From Promethearchaeota archaeon (GTDB lineage: Archaea; Asgardarchaeota; Lokiarchaeia; Sigyniarchaeales; SOKP01), in contig JAEOSU010000072.1 in NCBI GenBank assembly GCA_016840165.1, positions 270,566 through 334,565 on the forward strand: a DNA stretch of 64,000 nucleotides, read 5' to 3'. The translations under genes and the position numbers were made by a program. Below, one piece after another: positions 12,372 through 59,604 of the stretch. The stretch's first letter is position 1. Each line of letters starts with the position of its first letter. The notes beneath the pieces were generated by a model. It saw only the letters and a list, made by a program, of their open reading frames with translations. It did not search any database and had not been told where the DNA came from.

Positions 12372-12480
12372 ATTCCTTAAATAAGAAATTTTAATGTATA
12401 TTTTAAGTTTAATATTTTTATTTATAATTTCTATAATAATGAGTTTAATCATAAATAAAAATTCTTAATTTACTAAACTT

Positions 12481-12534
12481 AAAGGAGGCATTCCTTTTGT
12501 TCCTCTTTCACAAACATTTCTTGAAAGAGTTCAT
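12481..12534 (-). promoter_or_regulatory. SECIS-like stem-loop (imperfect 3' core) followed by a short hairpin
   Basis: Minus strand ATGA-A-CTCTTTCA-AG-AAA-TGTTTG-TGAAAGAG-GAAC-A-AAAGGA-ATGCC-TCCTTT: perfect 8-bp stem, AAA 11 nt after ATGA. Confidence 0.35.
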
Positions 12535-12655
12535 TCCAAGCTTAGTTCTATTTCGTTTGAAAATAATGGGCAAAATATTCATTATCTTTACCGAATTTCT
12601 TTCTAATCACTATTTTAAAAGAACTTATTTCAAACCGATTTTTCACTTTTTCTCA

Positions 12656-13015
12656 TCAACATCCAACATCTGGTTGTAATTGAATATAACTGTCAGGATA
12701 GACATTAAATTCAATTTTATCCCGAATGGGATTGAATTTTTGCATCAATCCGTTCTCATCTGGAGCATAAGCATAGATTCCAACATCATCATAAATGCTA
12801 TTTGTTTTAAAATCGACAAGCAATTGCATGTAATTGTGAATATAGCCCTCATTTATAGGAAAAATTGTTTTTTGTGTATCCTTTGCTTCTATTTTATCAA
12901 CCATCGCAAGACATTCCAAGAACGTAGCATCTTCTTTTATTGTAAGATTGTATTTCTTTCCGTGTTGAAGCCCCTTAATCGGTAAACTAATCTCAAAAGT
13001 TATTTTTTTAATAAT
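12656..13015 (-). CDS. Ubiquitin-like/MoaD-type beta-grasp protein ending Gly-Cys followed by TGA TGA; probable ATT start
   Basis: Frame extends upstream of the track's TTG (12919): IIKKITFEISL..KYNLTIKEDATFLECLAMVD (beta-beta-alpha pattern); C-terminus VYPDSYIQLQPDVGC parallels MoaD L.DGD.V...PPV.GG; GGAGG upstream. Confidence 0.6.
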   Translation of the reverse strand: MIKKITFEISLPIKGLQHGKKYNLTIKEDATFLECLAMVDKIEAKDTQKTIFPINEGYIHNYMQLLVDFKTNSIYDDVGIYAYAPDENGLMQKFNPIRDKIEFNVYPDSYIQLQPDVGC

Positions 13016-13048
13016 ATTCCCTCCATTGTTTAAATTAAATATTTATGC

Positions 13049-27288: not shown

Positions 27289-27927
27289 TTAATTAGTAGA
27301 TTTTTCGCAAGCTAATAATTCACGTATCTTTTCAGTAATTAAATCATAATCTTTTATTGAGTGTAAATTGGAAATGTGGATATATTCGATTTTATCAGTA
27401 TTTTTGTAAAAGCTATAGCTCACACTCAAATTAGGATTATTTTCTTTGATTTTAATCAAAGCTCCTCGTAAAAAAAGATTAATGAAACTTTCAGAAGTTT
27501 CTTTTATAGCCCTTGATTCGGGATCTATGAACTTGATTTCAACTTTTTTAAAATCATACAAGTTTAGGATACATAGAAGATTCTCTTCCTTCTGCTTTTT
27601 ATCGGAAAAAATTTTCCTCTTGACATTTGTACCTTTAAATTTATCTTCTGAAACATCCTCCTTAAAATAATCCTCAACCAAGATATTATTTTTTTTTAAT
27701 ACGTCTGGAAACATCTCATCTGCAGTAGAAAAGGATTTAGTGGTAATAATTGAATTGAGATAATTCAAAATTGAATGAATTTCAGAAATCTCATTCTGTA
27801 GTTCTTCTAGTTGATCTTTTTTCTTATAATAAAGATTTTGAAGCATAGAGAGCATTTGCGTTAATTTTTCTGTTTCCGTTTCCTTACCAGTCTTGTCCGA
27901 GGGCGTCATATATATTTTTAAAGACAT
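27289..27927 (-). CDS. Hypothetical protein with N-terminal coiled coil
   Basis: 212-codon ORF, heptad pattern in KKKDQLEELQNEISEI. Confidence 0.65.
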   Translation of the reverse strand: MSLKIYMTPSDKTGKETETEKLTQMLSMLQNLYYKKKDQLEELQNEISEIHSILNYLNSIITTKSFSTADEMFPDVLKKNNILVEDYFKEDVSEDKFKGTNVKRKIFSDKKQKEENLLCILNLYDFKKVEIKFIDPESRAIKETSESFINLFLRGALIKIKENNPNLSVSYSFYKNTDKIEYIHISNLHSIKDYDLITEKIRELLACEKSTN

Positions 27928-27988
27928 TTATTTTATTTATTTATTTAGTATTACTTGTGTTATTCAATATTTGTTAAGAGGAAAAATC

Positions 27989-28858
27989 ATGCATACTATG
28001 ATCATAACTCCAAAACCTAAAGACCATGAGGTAACTATTCTCACGAAAGAATTTAATAAAAGGGGGTATAGTGTTGAATTTTTTATCCCTGAAAAAGTAA
28101 AGGTTAAGATAGGTTCGAATTATTTTGGGAATCTTTTTGATTCATTAGAACCTAGGGCGGCATTAGTGAGAGGTTTTGGGGCTGCGGAGACTCAGAAAAT
28201 CTTTTTTAGGCTCGATTTATTGAGTGCAATGGAAGAATATGGAATAAAACTTATAAATTCCAGAAATTCTTTGGAAATTTCAAGTGATAAATTTTTAACC
28301 TCCTTATATTTAGAACACCATAACATTTCTACACCAAAGACTGTCGTATGTGAAGATCCAGATGAAGCACTTGCTTCTTTTGAAGAGCTTGGAGGTGATG
28401 TTGTGATAAAACCCCTATATGGATCAAAAGGGATAGGAATTACGCGATTGACGGATATAGGCTTCGCAGAAAACGTGATTTATTCCTTAGCCGAACTGAA
28501 TCAAATTTTCTATCTTCAAGAATTTGTCGAGCATCAAAATCGGGATATTCGCATCTTAGTAATAGGGGATAAGGCTATAGCAGGAATGTATAGAGTTAGC
28601 GATAATTGGAAGACAAATATTCATGCAGGAGCACATATGGAGCCAATAGAGCTAACGAAGGAGTTGAGAACGATTGCATTAAAATCGGCAAAAGTTACAA
28701 AAACAGAAATTGCGGGAGTTGATATTATAGAGACTGAGAAAGGGCTACAGGTGCTTGAAGTAAATTCAATTCCTGGTTTTACAGCGTTACAAAAAGTTAC
28801 GGATATCGACCTTGCTGCTGAGATTATATCATATTTTCTTGATAAAACAAAATCATAA
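27989..28858 (+). CDS. RimK/MptN-family ATP-grasp alpha-L-glutamate ligase
   Basis: SSDKF, TPKT, VIKPLYGSKGIG, QEFV, DIR, WKTNIHAG, LEVNSIPGF; ATG 27989 follows GAGG. Confidence 0.85.
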   Translation: MHTMIITPKPKDHEVTILTKEFNKRGYSVEFFIPEKVKVKIGSNYFGNLFDSLEPRAALVRGFGAAETQKIFFRLDLLSAMEEYGIKLINSRNSLEISSDKFLTSLYLEHHNISTPKTVVCEDPDEALASFEELGGDVVIKPLYGSKGIGITRLTDIGFAENVIYSLAELNQIFYLQEFVEHQNRDIRILVIGDKAIAGMYRVSDNWKTNIHAGAHMEPIELTKELRTIALKSAKVTKTEIAGVDIIETEKGLQVLEVNSIPGFTALQKVTDIDLAAEIISYFLDKTKS

Positions 28859-56967: not shown

Positions 56968-57480
56968 ATGGCGATTATAAATGAAAATCTGAATCCTAAT
57001 CTGATTGAACTTAACGAATATTCTGAAGTAAAAGTATCTTGCCCTGTATGTAAGACTGAAAAAGTACTCAAATTTCCGAGATCAGTAATTAATCAAGCAA
57101 AACAATTGACAACGATTTCACTTCCAAAAGGTTTAGTTTGTGACCATCATTTTCAAGCATTTGTTGACAAAAATTTCGTGGTTAGAGGATACCAAAAGGT
57201 AGATTTTGAATTTGCTTATGACATACTAAAAAACAGTGATTCAGAAGTATTTAGGGATTTAGAAAAAAAAGAGCATGATTTTTATGAGAACTTAATCCTT
57301 GAAGGAAATTTTGTTGAGTATCACTTGAACAAAAAGGATATTTCGATGGAGAGTAAAAAGTCAAAACCTAAGTCAAAAAAAATGACGTTAGAAGAGATCT
57401 ATAAAGAGTTCTGGGAATATATTGATGAAGATAATCAAGAATTTAAAGAATTTATCCAGAAAGATACTCGAAGGCAATAA
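56968..57480 (+). CDS. Hypothetical Zn-binding protein
   Basis: CPVC...CDHHFQAFVDKNF; GGTGA upstream. Confidence 0.7.
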   Translation: MAIINENLNPNLIELNEYSEVKVSCPVCKTEKVLKFPRSVINQAKQLTTISLPKGLVCDHHFQAFVDKNFVVRGYQKVDFEFAYDILKNSDSEVFRDLEKKEHDFYENLILEGNFVEYHLNKKDISMESKKSKPKSKKMTLEEIYKEFWEYIDEDNQEFKEFIQKDTRRQ

Positions 57481-57494
57481 AAGTAAAAGTTGAA

Positions 57495-57596
57495 TGGCAA
57501 GAGGGGGATTTGAACCCCCGATACCCAGATCTTCAGTATCACCTTTATCGGAAGCTCCGATAGATCTGGTGCGTTCCCGGGCTACGCCATCTTGCC
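57495..57596 (-). tRNA. tRNA-Phe(GAA) with 28-nt intron at position 30/31 (57538-57565)
   Basis: Acceptor GGCAAGA/TCTTGCC, D stem GCGT/ACGC, spliced anticodon arm CCAGA-CTGAAGA-TCTGG; BHB central helix CACC/GGTG with AGA and ATA bulges. Confidence 0.9.
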
Positions 57597-57736
57597 ATTG
57601 AATAGAATTCTAAACTGATTCTTATTTCAAAATTCGTGATTTAAAAAGTATGAAATCTCATATAAAGTTTTTTAGATATTAAAAATAAAAATGAAAGGTT
57701 ATCTTAAAACCTTTAAAATTAATGATTGATTGAATT

Positions 57737-57756
57737 AAAAAGGGGCATCCCTTTTT
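57737..57756 (-). terminator. Hairpin AAAAAGGG-ATGC-CCCTTTTT (terminator-like or 3' stabilising)
   Basis: Perfect 8-bp inverted repeat ending in a U-tract, directly after the SECIS-like element. Confidence 0.5.
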
Positions 57757-57794
57757 CTCAACCTCGCTTCCTCAGGTTTACAGCGTGGCTTCAT
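57757..57794 (-). promoter_or_regulatory. Eukaryote-type SECIS-like element
   Basis: Minus strand ATGA-A-GCCACGCT-GT-AAA-CCTGAGG-A-AGCGAGGT-TGAG: AUGA-N11-AA-N18-GA, 7 of 8 pairs in helix II, apical mini-stem; 4 nt after the UAA of a frame with in-frame UGAs. Confidence 0.65.
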
Positions 57795-57798
57795 TGAT

Positions 57799-58722
57799 TT
57801 AGTTCCTAAATATTATTTTTAATTTTCTGATGTAAATAATCACTGAAATACCAATTAAAAATGATAGAACAGGTATTATTAACCAAATCGGAGTATTTTC
57901 TTCTTGGGGTCTATTAGTAATTATAACTTTATTATAAGAGTCTATAAAAGTTATCTGATTGATAAGAGCAACCTTACGTGTTATGTTAACTTCTTTTGAG
58001 ATTCGCTCAGATTTATAGTCATAGAGGTAACCATAAATTTTCTCAGCAACGAGAATACCGGTATTATTATCAAAGTAATAATCGACATTTATGTAAAATG
58101 ATTTTCAATAATCTCCTTCAGACCATATGATATGTTGAGCGTTGAAGTGGTGTGTCGTGAAGTTATAAGCCGAGTTTGTGTTTATAGTTTCAATTCCTAT
58201 ATAATGAAAGGTCACATCACTTCTAATTGAATCAGAAGATTGATATTCTTTGAAATAATTGGAAAAAGTTAAGGTCTCATCAATACGAAATTTTTGGGAG
58301 CTATTAAAACTCGATATATTTAATAAAAGTTCAGTGTGAGTACCCTTAATATAAGCATCATATTCCATATTACTCACTTCAATAATCCTTCGAGAGGATT
58401 GGGAAATTATGTATGAAAGATTATCCCTTAAATATGTTAAATCTAGATCTTCATAGAAAGCTGATACTTTGGTATAGTTTTCTCCACCTATTTCATAATT
58501 TTCGAGATTTAAAGCATATTTGGTGGTTGAATAGTGATCCTTTGTAGGTGCGAATAGTATAAGATATTCCAGATGATATATTTCACTAAAATCGCTAGGC
58601 AAGTTCTCGTCATTTGCTCTGACAATAGTGCTATTTGAAATGATAGGTATAATCAAAATGAATGAGATTAATAGAAGAATTTTCAGTTGAATGGATTTTG
58701 TTCATTTTCTAATTTTGATCAT
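57799..58722 (-). CDS. Secreted, C-terminally membrane-anchored protein with two in-frame TGA codons (58702-58704, 58105-58107): candidate UGA-recoded protein or pseudogene
   Basis: One frame MIKIRK*TKSIQLKILLLISFILIIPII..RA (signal peptide) ..EGDY*KSFYINVDYYFDNNTGIL..TPIWLIIPVLSFLIGISVIIYIRKLK (TM plus basic tail) ending TAA. Confidence 0.6.
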
Positions 58723-58860
58723 CACCTTAAGTTTTTCAAGTAATAAATTAATAATAATGGGGTTTAAAAAAAAATCTAATTCTTAACAATTATAATCCAT
58801 GCTATTAAAAAATAGAGAAAATTTAGAAGGAATATGTATTCCAATGATCATCAAGAATAG

Positions 58861-59604
58861 TTATTTCATTAATACTTTAGTTCTTTTCTCTTCCGGTAAT
58901 TTCTCACTGGCATATCTCAAAATTAGACGAGATAGTCTATCCTTATTCTGCATTAAGTAATTAAAAATGAGACTTGGTTTGATATTTGAACAAGTCTTAA
59001 GTAGCCAACCGATACTTTTCTCGATATAATTGTTAGTAGAGTATTTTAGCATTTCTTCTATTTTGCTAAAAACGTAATCTTTGTCAAAATCTTTATGGAC
59101 CATTACTATTTTAAGAAGTATGACTATTGAAGCTCGTTTAATCCATAATAAATCATCAGTACTCCAGCTATCAATAGTTTTTATTGCTAATTGATGATTT
59201 TGTTTTTTTGCCAGAAATGGACCAATTACTCTAATACAACAACTATCACAAGTGCTCCAGGTATGACAAAAAGGAAAATATTCAAATCGAAACAAATCCG
59301 GCGTTTTTTCATCAAATTGATTTTTATATCTATTTAAAAAAAAGAATGCGAAAAATTTATACTCCTCAACGTTAGCCCTTGCCAATTGTTTAAAAATTTC
59401 TTTAGCTTGATTAAATGTGGGATTATATTGATTTTGAATCTTTCTTACTTCATTTTCAATATCTGAGGTTTTAATCCCTAAAATGACATAATTCTCAATA
59501 TCAGGATTTATAATTTTATACATTCGATCTTTTTTATCTTCAGATAAAATAGGTTTTAATTTATCTAAATTAGATTTAACATCGGACACAATATCTATTT
59601 TCAT
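58861..59604 (-). CDS. AlkD-like DNA alkylation repair protein (HEAT-like)
   Basis: LGIK, TWSTCD, WIKRAS, YIEKSIGWLLK, LRYASEKL. Confidence 0.8.
   Translation of the reverse strand: MKIDIVSDVKSNLDKLKPILSEDKKDRMYKIINPDIENYVILGIKTSDIENEVRKIQNQYNPTFNQAKEIFKQLARANVEEYKFFAFFFLNRYKNQFDEKTPDLFRFEYFPFCHTWSTCDSCCIRVIGPFLAKKQNHQLAIKTIDSWSTDDLLWIKRASIVILLKIVMVHKDFDKDYVFSKIEEMLKYSTNNYIEKSIGWLLKTCSNIKPSLIFNYLMQNKDRLSRLILRYASEKLPEEKRTKVLMK

Follow-up and report, generated by a model that had tools for sequence, protein, structure and literature searches.

Can an archaeal gene whose reading frame is interrupted twice by UGA still be translated in full, with selenocysteine (Sec) at both codons? The question is raised by a locus on the minus strand of a 64,000-nt stretch of DNA (hereafter the window) from Promethearchaeota archaeon (Lokiarchaeia; assembly GCA_016840165.1, contig JAEOSU010000072.1, positions 270,566 to 334,565). 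An earlier note, made from the letters alone, had pointed to a surface-protein gene with two in-frame UGAs and a eukaryote-type Sec insertion sequence (SECIS) element directly after its stop codon, and had proposed it as a candidate for a new class of selenoprotein. Here we report that both UGAs are conserved, that the SECIS element covaries, that the coding region is under selection and that the genome contains the Sec machinery, which together bear this proposal out. The locus probably represents an undescribed selenoprotein family with two Sec residues and a LolA/LmcA-like predicted ectodomain, in which a Loki-type SECIS element decodes both UGAs. Sec is the residue that we infer to be inserted, and decoding is most likely to hold for the second UGA (UGA2, giving Sec2), with less confidence for the first (UGA1, giving Sec1).

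A frame with two conserved UGA codons

The frame runs from an ATG at 58722 to a TAA at 57799-57801 and comprises 307 codons, free of frameshifts and interrupted only by two TGAs at codons 7 and 206, exactly as the earlier note had described it. The window is part of contig C54, which belongs to a 3.6-Mb genome of 31.6% G + C. Long open reading frames (ORFs) of this genome end in TAA (70%), TAG (15%) or TGA (15%); TGA is therefore an ordinary stop codon, and the 64-kb window is elsewhere densely coding under translation table 11. In an independent study, runs X5 and X6 gave contigs with zero differences from positions 57700-58603. They cover TGA2 and the hairpin behind the gene; TGA1 lies beyond their reach and was seen in other assemblies (loci L012, L015, L020 and L021).

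A word-indexed protein search returned 11 proteins of 52-99% identity, nearly all of them 183-residue ORFs cut at the same two sites. When the contigs of 10 loci at 52-96% identity were read through, both TGAs were in frame and the C-terminal 100 residues were conserved in all. Whole genomes yielded 14 further members of ~30% identity that keep both TGAs, including a paralog within the source genome (G000:C42, positions 27870-28814). By whole-genome search the family was found in 15 of the 161 genomes of the class (3 genera in 2 families), each full match with two TGAs; the related loci belong to metagenome-assembled genomes of Promethearchaeia/Lokiarchaeota. Because 155 of the 161 genomes have SepSecS, co-occurrence of the family with this gene is uninformative.

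Both TGAs are kept in ~25 homologs from independent assemblies. UGA1 is TGA in 23 of the 23 sequences that reach the site, UGA2 is TGA in 24 of the 24 close and mid-distance members and part of a C-x-U motif in distant ones, and neither is ever TAA or TAG. The homolog comparison suggested in the earlier note thus shows conserved UGAs together with a co-occurring SECIS element. A profile search of 1.84 billion representative proteins recovered 24 proteins, almost all of them middle or C-terminal fragments bounded by TGA; no full-length homolog without the TGAs, whether a Cys, Trp or other form, was found among these representatives. A 299-residue protein (P0006) with Trp at the second site proved to be a table-4 gene-call artefact, which translates only with TGA read as Trp.

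The lone read-through protein, P0019 (locus L069; GCA_019058395.1, L069:1378-2419), has Pro at the Sec2 position and a relocated TGA 33 codons further on, in the context DLKPR-U-GLVD. It keeps the N-terminal TGA (as U-x-x-x-C) and the 3' element, and its Sec appears to have migrated between neighbouring turns. The distant locus L070 has an ordinary ATG start, no UGA1, C-S-U at the second site and a 3' element.

For 17 pairs of homologs, the ratio of nonsynonymous to synonymous substitution rates (dN/dS, Nei-Gojobori) was 0.17-0.35 between the UGAs and 0.06-0.33 after UGA2. The region after UGA2 is translated and under purifying selection, the outcome of the dN/dS check proposed in the earlier note. 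A pseudogene or assembly error beside an orphan hairpin, the former a caveat of that note, would fit the behaviour of gene callers, which split the frame and call a 183-aa ORF between the two TGAs, and one relative (L039 in genome G092) does look decayed. The same two TGAs in ~25 independent assemblies, the zero differences in the independent-study contigs, the purifying selection on both sides of TGA2 and a confident predicted fold across it (see below) leave this explanation with a negligible probability. The truly decayed L039 (G092:C48:1-1606) is different: an internal deletion or frameshift follows HYKLDTI, and its core AUGA has become AUAA. This locus illustrates what a genuine pseudogene of the family looks like. 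The idea that G092 is a Sec-loss genome with a decayed copy was rejected, as it still has tRNA-Sec, a SelB-like gene and a VhuD gene with two TGAs.

The 3' RNA element and the Sec machinery

The hairpin begins 4 nt after the TAA and consists of ATGA (57794-57791), AGCCACGCT (57790-57782), GTAAACCTGAGGA (57781-57769), AGCGAGGTT (57768-57760) and GA (57759-57758). It matches the pattern AUGA-N11-AA-N18-GA, with 8 of 9 stem pairs formed and a single A.A mismatch, so that the eukaryote-type hairpin of the earlier note is confirmed. After the core GA the DNA reads AAAAAGGG-ATGC-CCCTTTTT, a second hairpin of the form AAAGG-AUGC-CCUUU. Helix I, which the note had found not evident, is formed by positions 57798-57806 and 57731-57739 and closes the structure around the SECIS hairpin and the second hairpin. 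It is weak in the window copy, perfect in relatives, and covaries (GGAAUUAAA/UUUAAUUCC, AAGGAG/CUCCUU, AGAGUUUA/UAAACUCU and GAGGUCA/UGAUCUC). The second hairpin may belong to the Loki Sec-insertion signal as a component not recognised so far.

Every canonical SECIS element of the source genome (G000; L041-L050) is also directly followed by a small second hairpin, whose loop often contains UGC or AGC.

A SECIS descriptor (ATGA, a 9-bp stem with at most 1 mismatch, a loop of 10-14 nt, and GA or AA), which catches the canonical elements of the source genome, matched 202 times in 7.2 Mb (both strands); from this density, a match would fall by chance within 30 nt of any one stop with a probability of ~1e-3. 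The 3' elements of 21 family members were collected. ATGA is present in all but L034 (GTGA), and GA in all but L040 and L038 (AA). The sequence of helix II is wholly different among clades yet paired (AGCCACGCU/AGCGAGGUU, AGCUACGUU/AACGUGGUU, AAUUGUUCA/UGAACAAUC, AUCUACUAU/AUAGUAGAA and ACCAAUUUC/GAAAUAGGU). The stop codon lies 4 nt before the AUGA, is the UGA of the AUGA itself, or falls in the loop or in the 3' arm; because it shifts relative to the RNA, conservation acts at the RNA level and not on the coding sequence.

In the MAFFT alignment, 75% of the cells were paired, compared with 37-52% with slid partners, and the covariation score was 0.270 compared with 0.162 after shuffling (0 of 500 shuffles), with double changes in 8 of the 9 helix II pairs. 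A model-fitted alignment of 27 sequences, which is biased towards the model, gave 79% paired cells (slid partners at most 51%), a covariation score of 0.437 compared with 0.177, and double changes in all 24 pairs, including all 9 of helix II. The apical loops of the L029 group (AAUAAAUUAUAG, 12 nt) and of L069 (GCAAACGUUAG, 11 nt) both fit type I.

Covariance models were built from the family elements (R1) and from 5 canonical SECIS elements (R2). In the source genome, R1 found the window element, the paralog and a third locus. In a 160-kb search it found the held-out elements of L069 (54 bits) and L070 (42 bits) and, in the same search, two canonical VhuD SECIS elements (30 and 29 bits, E ~2e-4). 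R2 in turn found the family members L032, L029 and L036 (29.5 and 25.7 bits, E 0.002-0.013). The match to bona fide SECIS elements, a check proposed in the earlier note, is supported by cross-detection between canonical elements and some family members, the window copy not being among those recovered by R2 (see below). An Rfam scan of positions 57400-58900 (E <= 10) gave no SECIS family among the matches listed; this carries no weight, since Rfam has no model of the short Loki elements.

The earlier note had made its proposal depend on tRNA-Sec and EFSec, and both are present in the source genome. SepSecS scored 476 bits and SelB/EFSec 246 bits (above cut-off), a PSTK-like gene scored 153 bits (below the curated cut-off of 290 bits), and SelD has a UGA at its active site (HG-U-SCK). 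The tRNA-Sec gene (C63:16334-16482, minus strand, anticodon UCA) is found ~80 nt upstream of SepSecS. Two non-canonical introns interrupt it, one of ~30 nt in its D arm and another of ~28 nt in its T loop. The gene was located by BLAST with the intron-less, 89-nt tRNA-Sec that congeners have at the same place, ~80 nt upstream of SepSecS. RF01852, ARAGORN and three custom pattern scans of the source genome missed it, as did an Rfam scan of C63:1-40000, which found only an intron-bearing tRNA-Ser(GGA). A T-loop intron has been reported for Loki tRNA-Sec (PMC4989117). The canonical selenoprotein genes of the genome encode four VhuD (two UGAs each), one VhuU, one PrxL (U-x-x-U) and SelD. Their 3' sides carry ATGA, a 9-bp stem, an 11-nt AAAAA..AG loop and GA or AA, with a type II variant instead at SelD.

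These data also bear on read-through without Sec, by a near-cognate or suppressor tRNA or a local change of the code, in which case the 3' RNA would serve L7Ae binding, mRNA stability or termination. Such a route would sit well with the lack of Cys homologs and with the terminator-like appearance of the second hairpin and its T-run, and Sec insertion itself is what we infer. However, in its AUGA/GA core, its 9-bp helix II and its position the RNA agrees with the canonical SECIS elements of the genome, and the models detect each other's elements. TGA is a normal stop codon here, and the conserved Trp codons within the gene are TGG in all members. The nucleotide that follows each UGA is A or G without exception, never C or U, whereas read-through-prone UGA contexts have C as the fourth base. 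We consider this route very unlikely. A table-4 code (TGA = Trp) was rejected, as TGA stops frames elsewhere and the conserved Trp codons in the gene are TGG. The option in the earlier note of a SECIS element that tolerates drift from TGG to TGA fails on the same codons and on the homologs, none of which has Trp at either site.

The predicted protein, its motifs and its start

A structure predicted by AlphaFold2 with 20 sequences (predicted local distance difference test score, pLDDT, 82; predicted template modelling score, pTM, 0.73) consists of an N-terminal helix, a beta-rich domain and a C-terminal helix; a first run with 10 close sequences (pLDDT 38) was discarded. The strands at model residues 166-178, 184-198, 204-215, 220-232 and 237-251 run across Sec2 (residue 203), and those after UGA2 have a pLDDT of ~90. 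Foldseek matched the model to LmcA of M. smegmatis (7n3v; E 7e-6, probability 1.0). VIA gave the same protein (Z 10.9, 175 residues), BDI_3050 (4fvs, Z 10.2) and the YmcC-like BF2203 (3fzx, Z 10.0), in superpositions that cover 169-176 residues in the model range 40-256 with Z modestly above the usual background of 7-8; LolA, LprG, LppX, RseB/MucB and EPDR1 came next at Z 6-8. Sequence searches of Pfam, NCBIfam and PDB gave no meaningful match for the family protein. Lys and Arg residues precede helix 1 and follow helix 2, with acidic residues on the other sides, a distribution that points to cytoplasmic ends and an outside domain. In line with the earlier note, which had seen no Cys and many N-x-S/T sequons, the window copy has 0 Cys and 8 sequons; other members have 2-8 sequons.

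In the mechanism that we propose, a single Loki-type SECIS element would abut or overlap the 3' end of the coding region with its helix I, AUGA/GA kink-turn core, 9-bp helix II and second hairpin. This three-way structure would recruit SelB/EFSec and Sec-tRNA(Sec), and two UGAs ~200 codons apart would be read as Sec. The product would be a two-helix, membrane-tethered protein with a short basic N-terminus and a basic C-terminal tail in the cytoplasm and a glycosylatable, LolA/LmcA-like open beta-barrel facing outward. Sec1, 3-7 residues from the start, would be part of a U-x-x-C/S motif at the cytoplasmic face, and Sec2 would come directly after a turn that is conserved and lies at one barrel end. 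Our best guess at the chemistry is a selenol-based redox site or a metal/chalcogen-binding site, not catalysis of a known reaction.

The residues around the UGAs are in keeping with such chemistry. The Cys at +3 from UGA1 (U-x-x-C) is the sole Cys in most members, with conserved frame and spacing of TGA-N6-TGT, and C-x-U, with a Cys two residues before Sec2, occurs in L037, L070 and several distant fragments. Both are classic spacings of a selenol/thiol pair. Because relatives carry them, the statement in the earlier note that the protein has no redox motif holds for the window clade and not for the family. Of the options laid out there, a non-redox extracellular selenoprotein is the best supported, with its 'non-redox, no motif' part limited in the same way.

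Another of these options was a selenium switch. In the form considered here, UGA1 would abort synthesis when Sec-tRNA is scarce, UGA2 would act as a stop that yields a shorter, secreted form, and the selenium would be chemically idle. Sec1 may lie in a cleaved segment, the window clade has no partner Cys, the move of Sec2 to another turn in L069 indicates some positional freedom, and an early UGA would avoid costly truncated products. A product stopped at UGA2, however, would lack four or five barrel strands and is unlikely to fold, which makes the choice between a released and an anchored form at codon 206 unlikely, although a checkpoint at codon 7 is conceivable. Moreover, the conserved U-x-x-C and C-x-U motifs point to chemistry. 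Judged by the strand order of the model, the relocated UGA of L069 would fall in a turn at the same edge of the sheet, two strands further on. Such a shift would agree with a functional residue that has migrated, and it hints at a functional site at this end of the barrel. The switch is improbable, and since it still needs Sec insertion it would be a functional variant of the two-Sec reading and no true alternative.

The translation start bears on UGA1. In 22 of 23 sequences, TGA1 is preceded at a distance of 15-16 nt by GGTGA(T/G/A), and 21 of 23 members have ATT, ATA or ATC three codons before UGA1, at 12-13 nt from the first G of GGTG. Across the genome, GGTG is most frequent 9-13 nt ahead of ATG starts, though only ~4% of long ORFs have it there. 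The GTG within GGTG is in frame in many members and out of frame in the L029 group, and in L030 and L031 it is followed by TAA. The ATG that overlaps UGA1 (A-TGA) was rejected as a start, as its frame closes after 2-24 codons. On account of the GGTG spacing, the conserved ATT/ATA/ATC, the kept TGA-N6-TGT and the lack of a conserved later start, initiation would take place at AUU (or GUG), with Sec1 at about residue 4-8; of all steps in the reading, this one is the least certain.

A selenoprotein with one Sec, in which UGA2 is decoded and UGA1 lies outside the protein, either before a later start or in an upstream frame of 3-7 codons that tunes initiation, has to be weighed here. A canonical in-frame start before UGA1 is missing in L032 and in L030/L031, an ATG directly follows the TGA in L012, several members have TTG six codons after UGA1, and the distant L070 does without UGA1 altogether. 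To our knowledge, a Sec 3-7 codons from the start would be nearer to the start codon than in any described selenoprotein. However, no start past UGA1 is conserved (the codon at +6 is CTG, TTG, TGG, TTA or TAT), and TGA-N6-TGT with the sole Cys is hard to explain if untranslated. The distance from GGTG to ATT/ATA/ATC falls within the genome-wide Shine-Dalgarno spacing, and UGA1 is invariably TGA, never TAA. Exclusion of UGA1 from the protein is, in our view, unlikely.

Several observations weigh against a two-Sec protein decoded by a SECIS element. The apical loop of the window clade (GUAAACCUGAGGA, 13 nt, GUAAA...GGA, with AAA at positions 3-5 and a CC/GG mini-stem of at most 2 bp) differs from the 11-nt type I loop AAAAA...AG of the source genome. 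It is nearer to the type II element of selD in that genome, AUGA-A-GUGAGCUU-AAA-CACGAAAGUG-A-GGGCUUAC-A-GAG, than to type I loops, and similar G[U/G]AAA apical variants have been reported (PMC11227280). R2, which is overfitted to its 5 sequences, did not recover the window element with or without filters. As it scored only 13 bits for the held-out canonical element VhuD_C9, which MAFFT had misaligned, this miss is uninformative and not a negative result. The partner Cys of Sec1 is lost in the window clade (U-T-K-S), and L027 has Tyr there. Given the non-canonical starts of many members, UGA1 might belong to a 5' leader or to a very short upstream frame and not to the protein, and Sec1 would be discarded if the N-terminal helix were a cleaved signal peptide. 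Finally, no Cys homolog that aligns with either Sec was found among the 1.84 billion representatives, and the sole substitution seen is the Pro at the Sec2 position in L069. Cys homologs are the usual, though not obligatory, hallmark of a selenoprotein family.

It is possible, if somewhat doubtful as a whole, that the family is a surface, ligand-binding, LolA-like archaeal selenoprotein, the first beyond cytoplasmic redox and selenium metabolism, tethered by two helices, with one Sec facing outward at the barrel mouth and a second Sec ~4 residues from a non-AUG start, within a cytoplasmic U-x-x-C motif. If so, UGA1 would encode a functional residue and at the same time act as a selenium checkpoint for initiation, and the lack of a Cys form would make selenium indispensable for whatever the protein binds or senses.

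Table 1. Positions of the gene, its predicted protein segments and its 3' RNA element in the window.
Feature	Positions	Strand	Remarks
Read-through coding frame	57799..58725	-	304-308 codons by start choice; kept end to end in ~25 homologs
GGTGAT, Shine-Dalgarno-like; contains in-frame GTG (58723-58725)	58721..58726	-	Family-conserved
ATT codon, putative non-canonical start, three codons before UGA1	58711..58713	-	Alternatives: GTG 58723-58725, ATG 58720-58722
UGA1, putative Sec, in basic N-terminal tail	58702..58704	-	Codon 7 from ATG; U-T-K-S here, U-x-x-C in most relatives
Hydrophobic segment 1, putative signal peptide h-region or signal anchor, ILLLISFILIIPII	58636..58680	-	Helix 5-26 in model; positive charges before, negative charges after
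Predicted ectodomain, beta-rich open barrel, LolA/LprG/YmcC/LmcA-like fold, spans UGA2	57949..58596	-	AlphaFold2, Foldseek, VIA
UGA2, putative Sec	58105..58107	-	Codon 206; directly after conserved beta-turn W-S-E-G-D-Y-U
Predicted C-terminal transmembrane helix and basic cytoplasmic tail	57805..57888	-	Helix 276-303 in model
Helix I, 5' strand, GGAACUAAA	57798..57806	-	Overlaps last codons and TAA; covaries
SECIS core: AUGA, 9-bp helix II, 13-nt apical loop GUAAACCUGAGGA, GA	57758..57794	-	Covariation across family
Second hairpin, AAAAAGGG-AUGC-CCCUUUUU, directly 3' of SECIS core	57737..57756	-	Kept in all members
Helix I, 3' strand, UUUAAUUCA	57731..57739	-	7/9 pairs in window copy; 9/9 in L020, L012 and L011

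Comparison with known systems and further observations

Seven families of Asgard selenoproteins have been described, namely SelD, FrhA/VhuU, HdrA, FrhD/VhuD, Prx-like, AhpF-N-like and DsbA-like proteins (PMC4989117, PMC11227280 and a 2026 review, PMC13188914), and the window family is not among them (PMC11227280, PMC13188914). All seven are cytoplasmic redox or selenium-metabolism proteins. Earlier surveys relied on homology and on Sec/Cys pairs (Mariotti et al. 2016, PMC4989117; Huang, Xiao and Zhang 2024, PMC11227280); the window family, which lacks Cys homologs as well as a Pfam domain, is invisible to these methods.

The window gene resembles the Asgard genes with lokiSECIS or eSECIS-like elements in its AUGA core, its 9-bp helix II, the A-rich unpaired apical bases and the GA or AA after the stem. 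It also shares with them the location of the element in the 3' untranslated region or overlapping the coding end, the use of one SECIS element for two distant UGAs, the lineage and the Sec machinery. In contrast to the known Asgard selenoproteins, it does not have an oxidoreductase fold, and Cys homologs were not found. Its RNA differs from the type I elements in the 13-nt loop of the window clade (instead of 11 nt) and in a helix I that closes a three-way junction with the second hairpin.

Eukaryotic type II SECIS elements share the AUGA-N11-AA-N18-GA spacing, a helix I under the internal loop, the unpaired AAA and possibly the CC/GG mini-stem; in the window family, helix II is shorter and an extra hairpin lies 3' of the internal loop. 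SBP2 is not known in archaea (PMC4989117). The ~25 covarying examples of a complete Loki SECIS element with helix I and second hairpin should be useful for modelling the transition from archaeal to eukaryotic SECIS elements and for spotting further hidden selenoproteins, and two more such families surfaced alongside this one (see below). A Sec at UGA1 would bring the known range of Sec positions to only a few codons from the start.

Among lipid- or lipoprotein-binding proteins of the predicted fold, LolA, LolB, LprG, LppX, YmcC and LmcA have an open beta-barrel on which the model superposes, and they too are extracytoplasmic and membrane-tethered. In the window family the predicted tether consists of two transmembrane helices and not of a lipid anchor, and there is no sequence similarity. 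We know of no Sec in any of these families.

The eukaryotic proteins SelK and SelS have a single Sec near a membrane helix, in a short, unstructured cytoplasmic tail. Their tail is C-terminal, they have no ectodomain and they are not homologous to the window family, so the likeness would be one of analogy. Two small one-helix membrane ORFs of the source genome (G000:C82:26155-26388 and G000:C37:3240-3461, both on the minus strand) contain GTG-U-G-C and GGG-U-G-C, respectively, and are followed by a type I lokiSECIS element. These small selenoproteins (~70 residues, one Sec) share the SECIS type, the membrane location and truncation by gene callers with the window protein, which is unrelated to them and has ~305 residues, two putative Sec residues and a predicted folded ectodomain.

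A further frame with adjacent TGAs lies in the window at 12548-13042 (minus strand, 164 codons) and reads PDVGC-U-U-EKV at this site. It is followed by a SECIS-type element at 12456-12554, which R1 detects with 40 bits (E 3e-7). Homologs are present in 53 of 61 genomes of the taxonomic family, almost all with two TGAs, and the protein has no match in Pfam or NCBIfam. This frame probably represents another undescribed and widespread selenoprotein family. Finally, a tRNA gene of 102 nt with a ~34-nt insert in the anticodon region (57495-57596, minus strand) lies ~140 nt downstream of the SECIS element of the two-UGA gene; it was found with Rfam (51 bits) and missed by ARAGORN.

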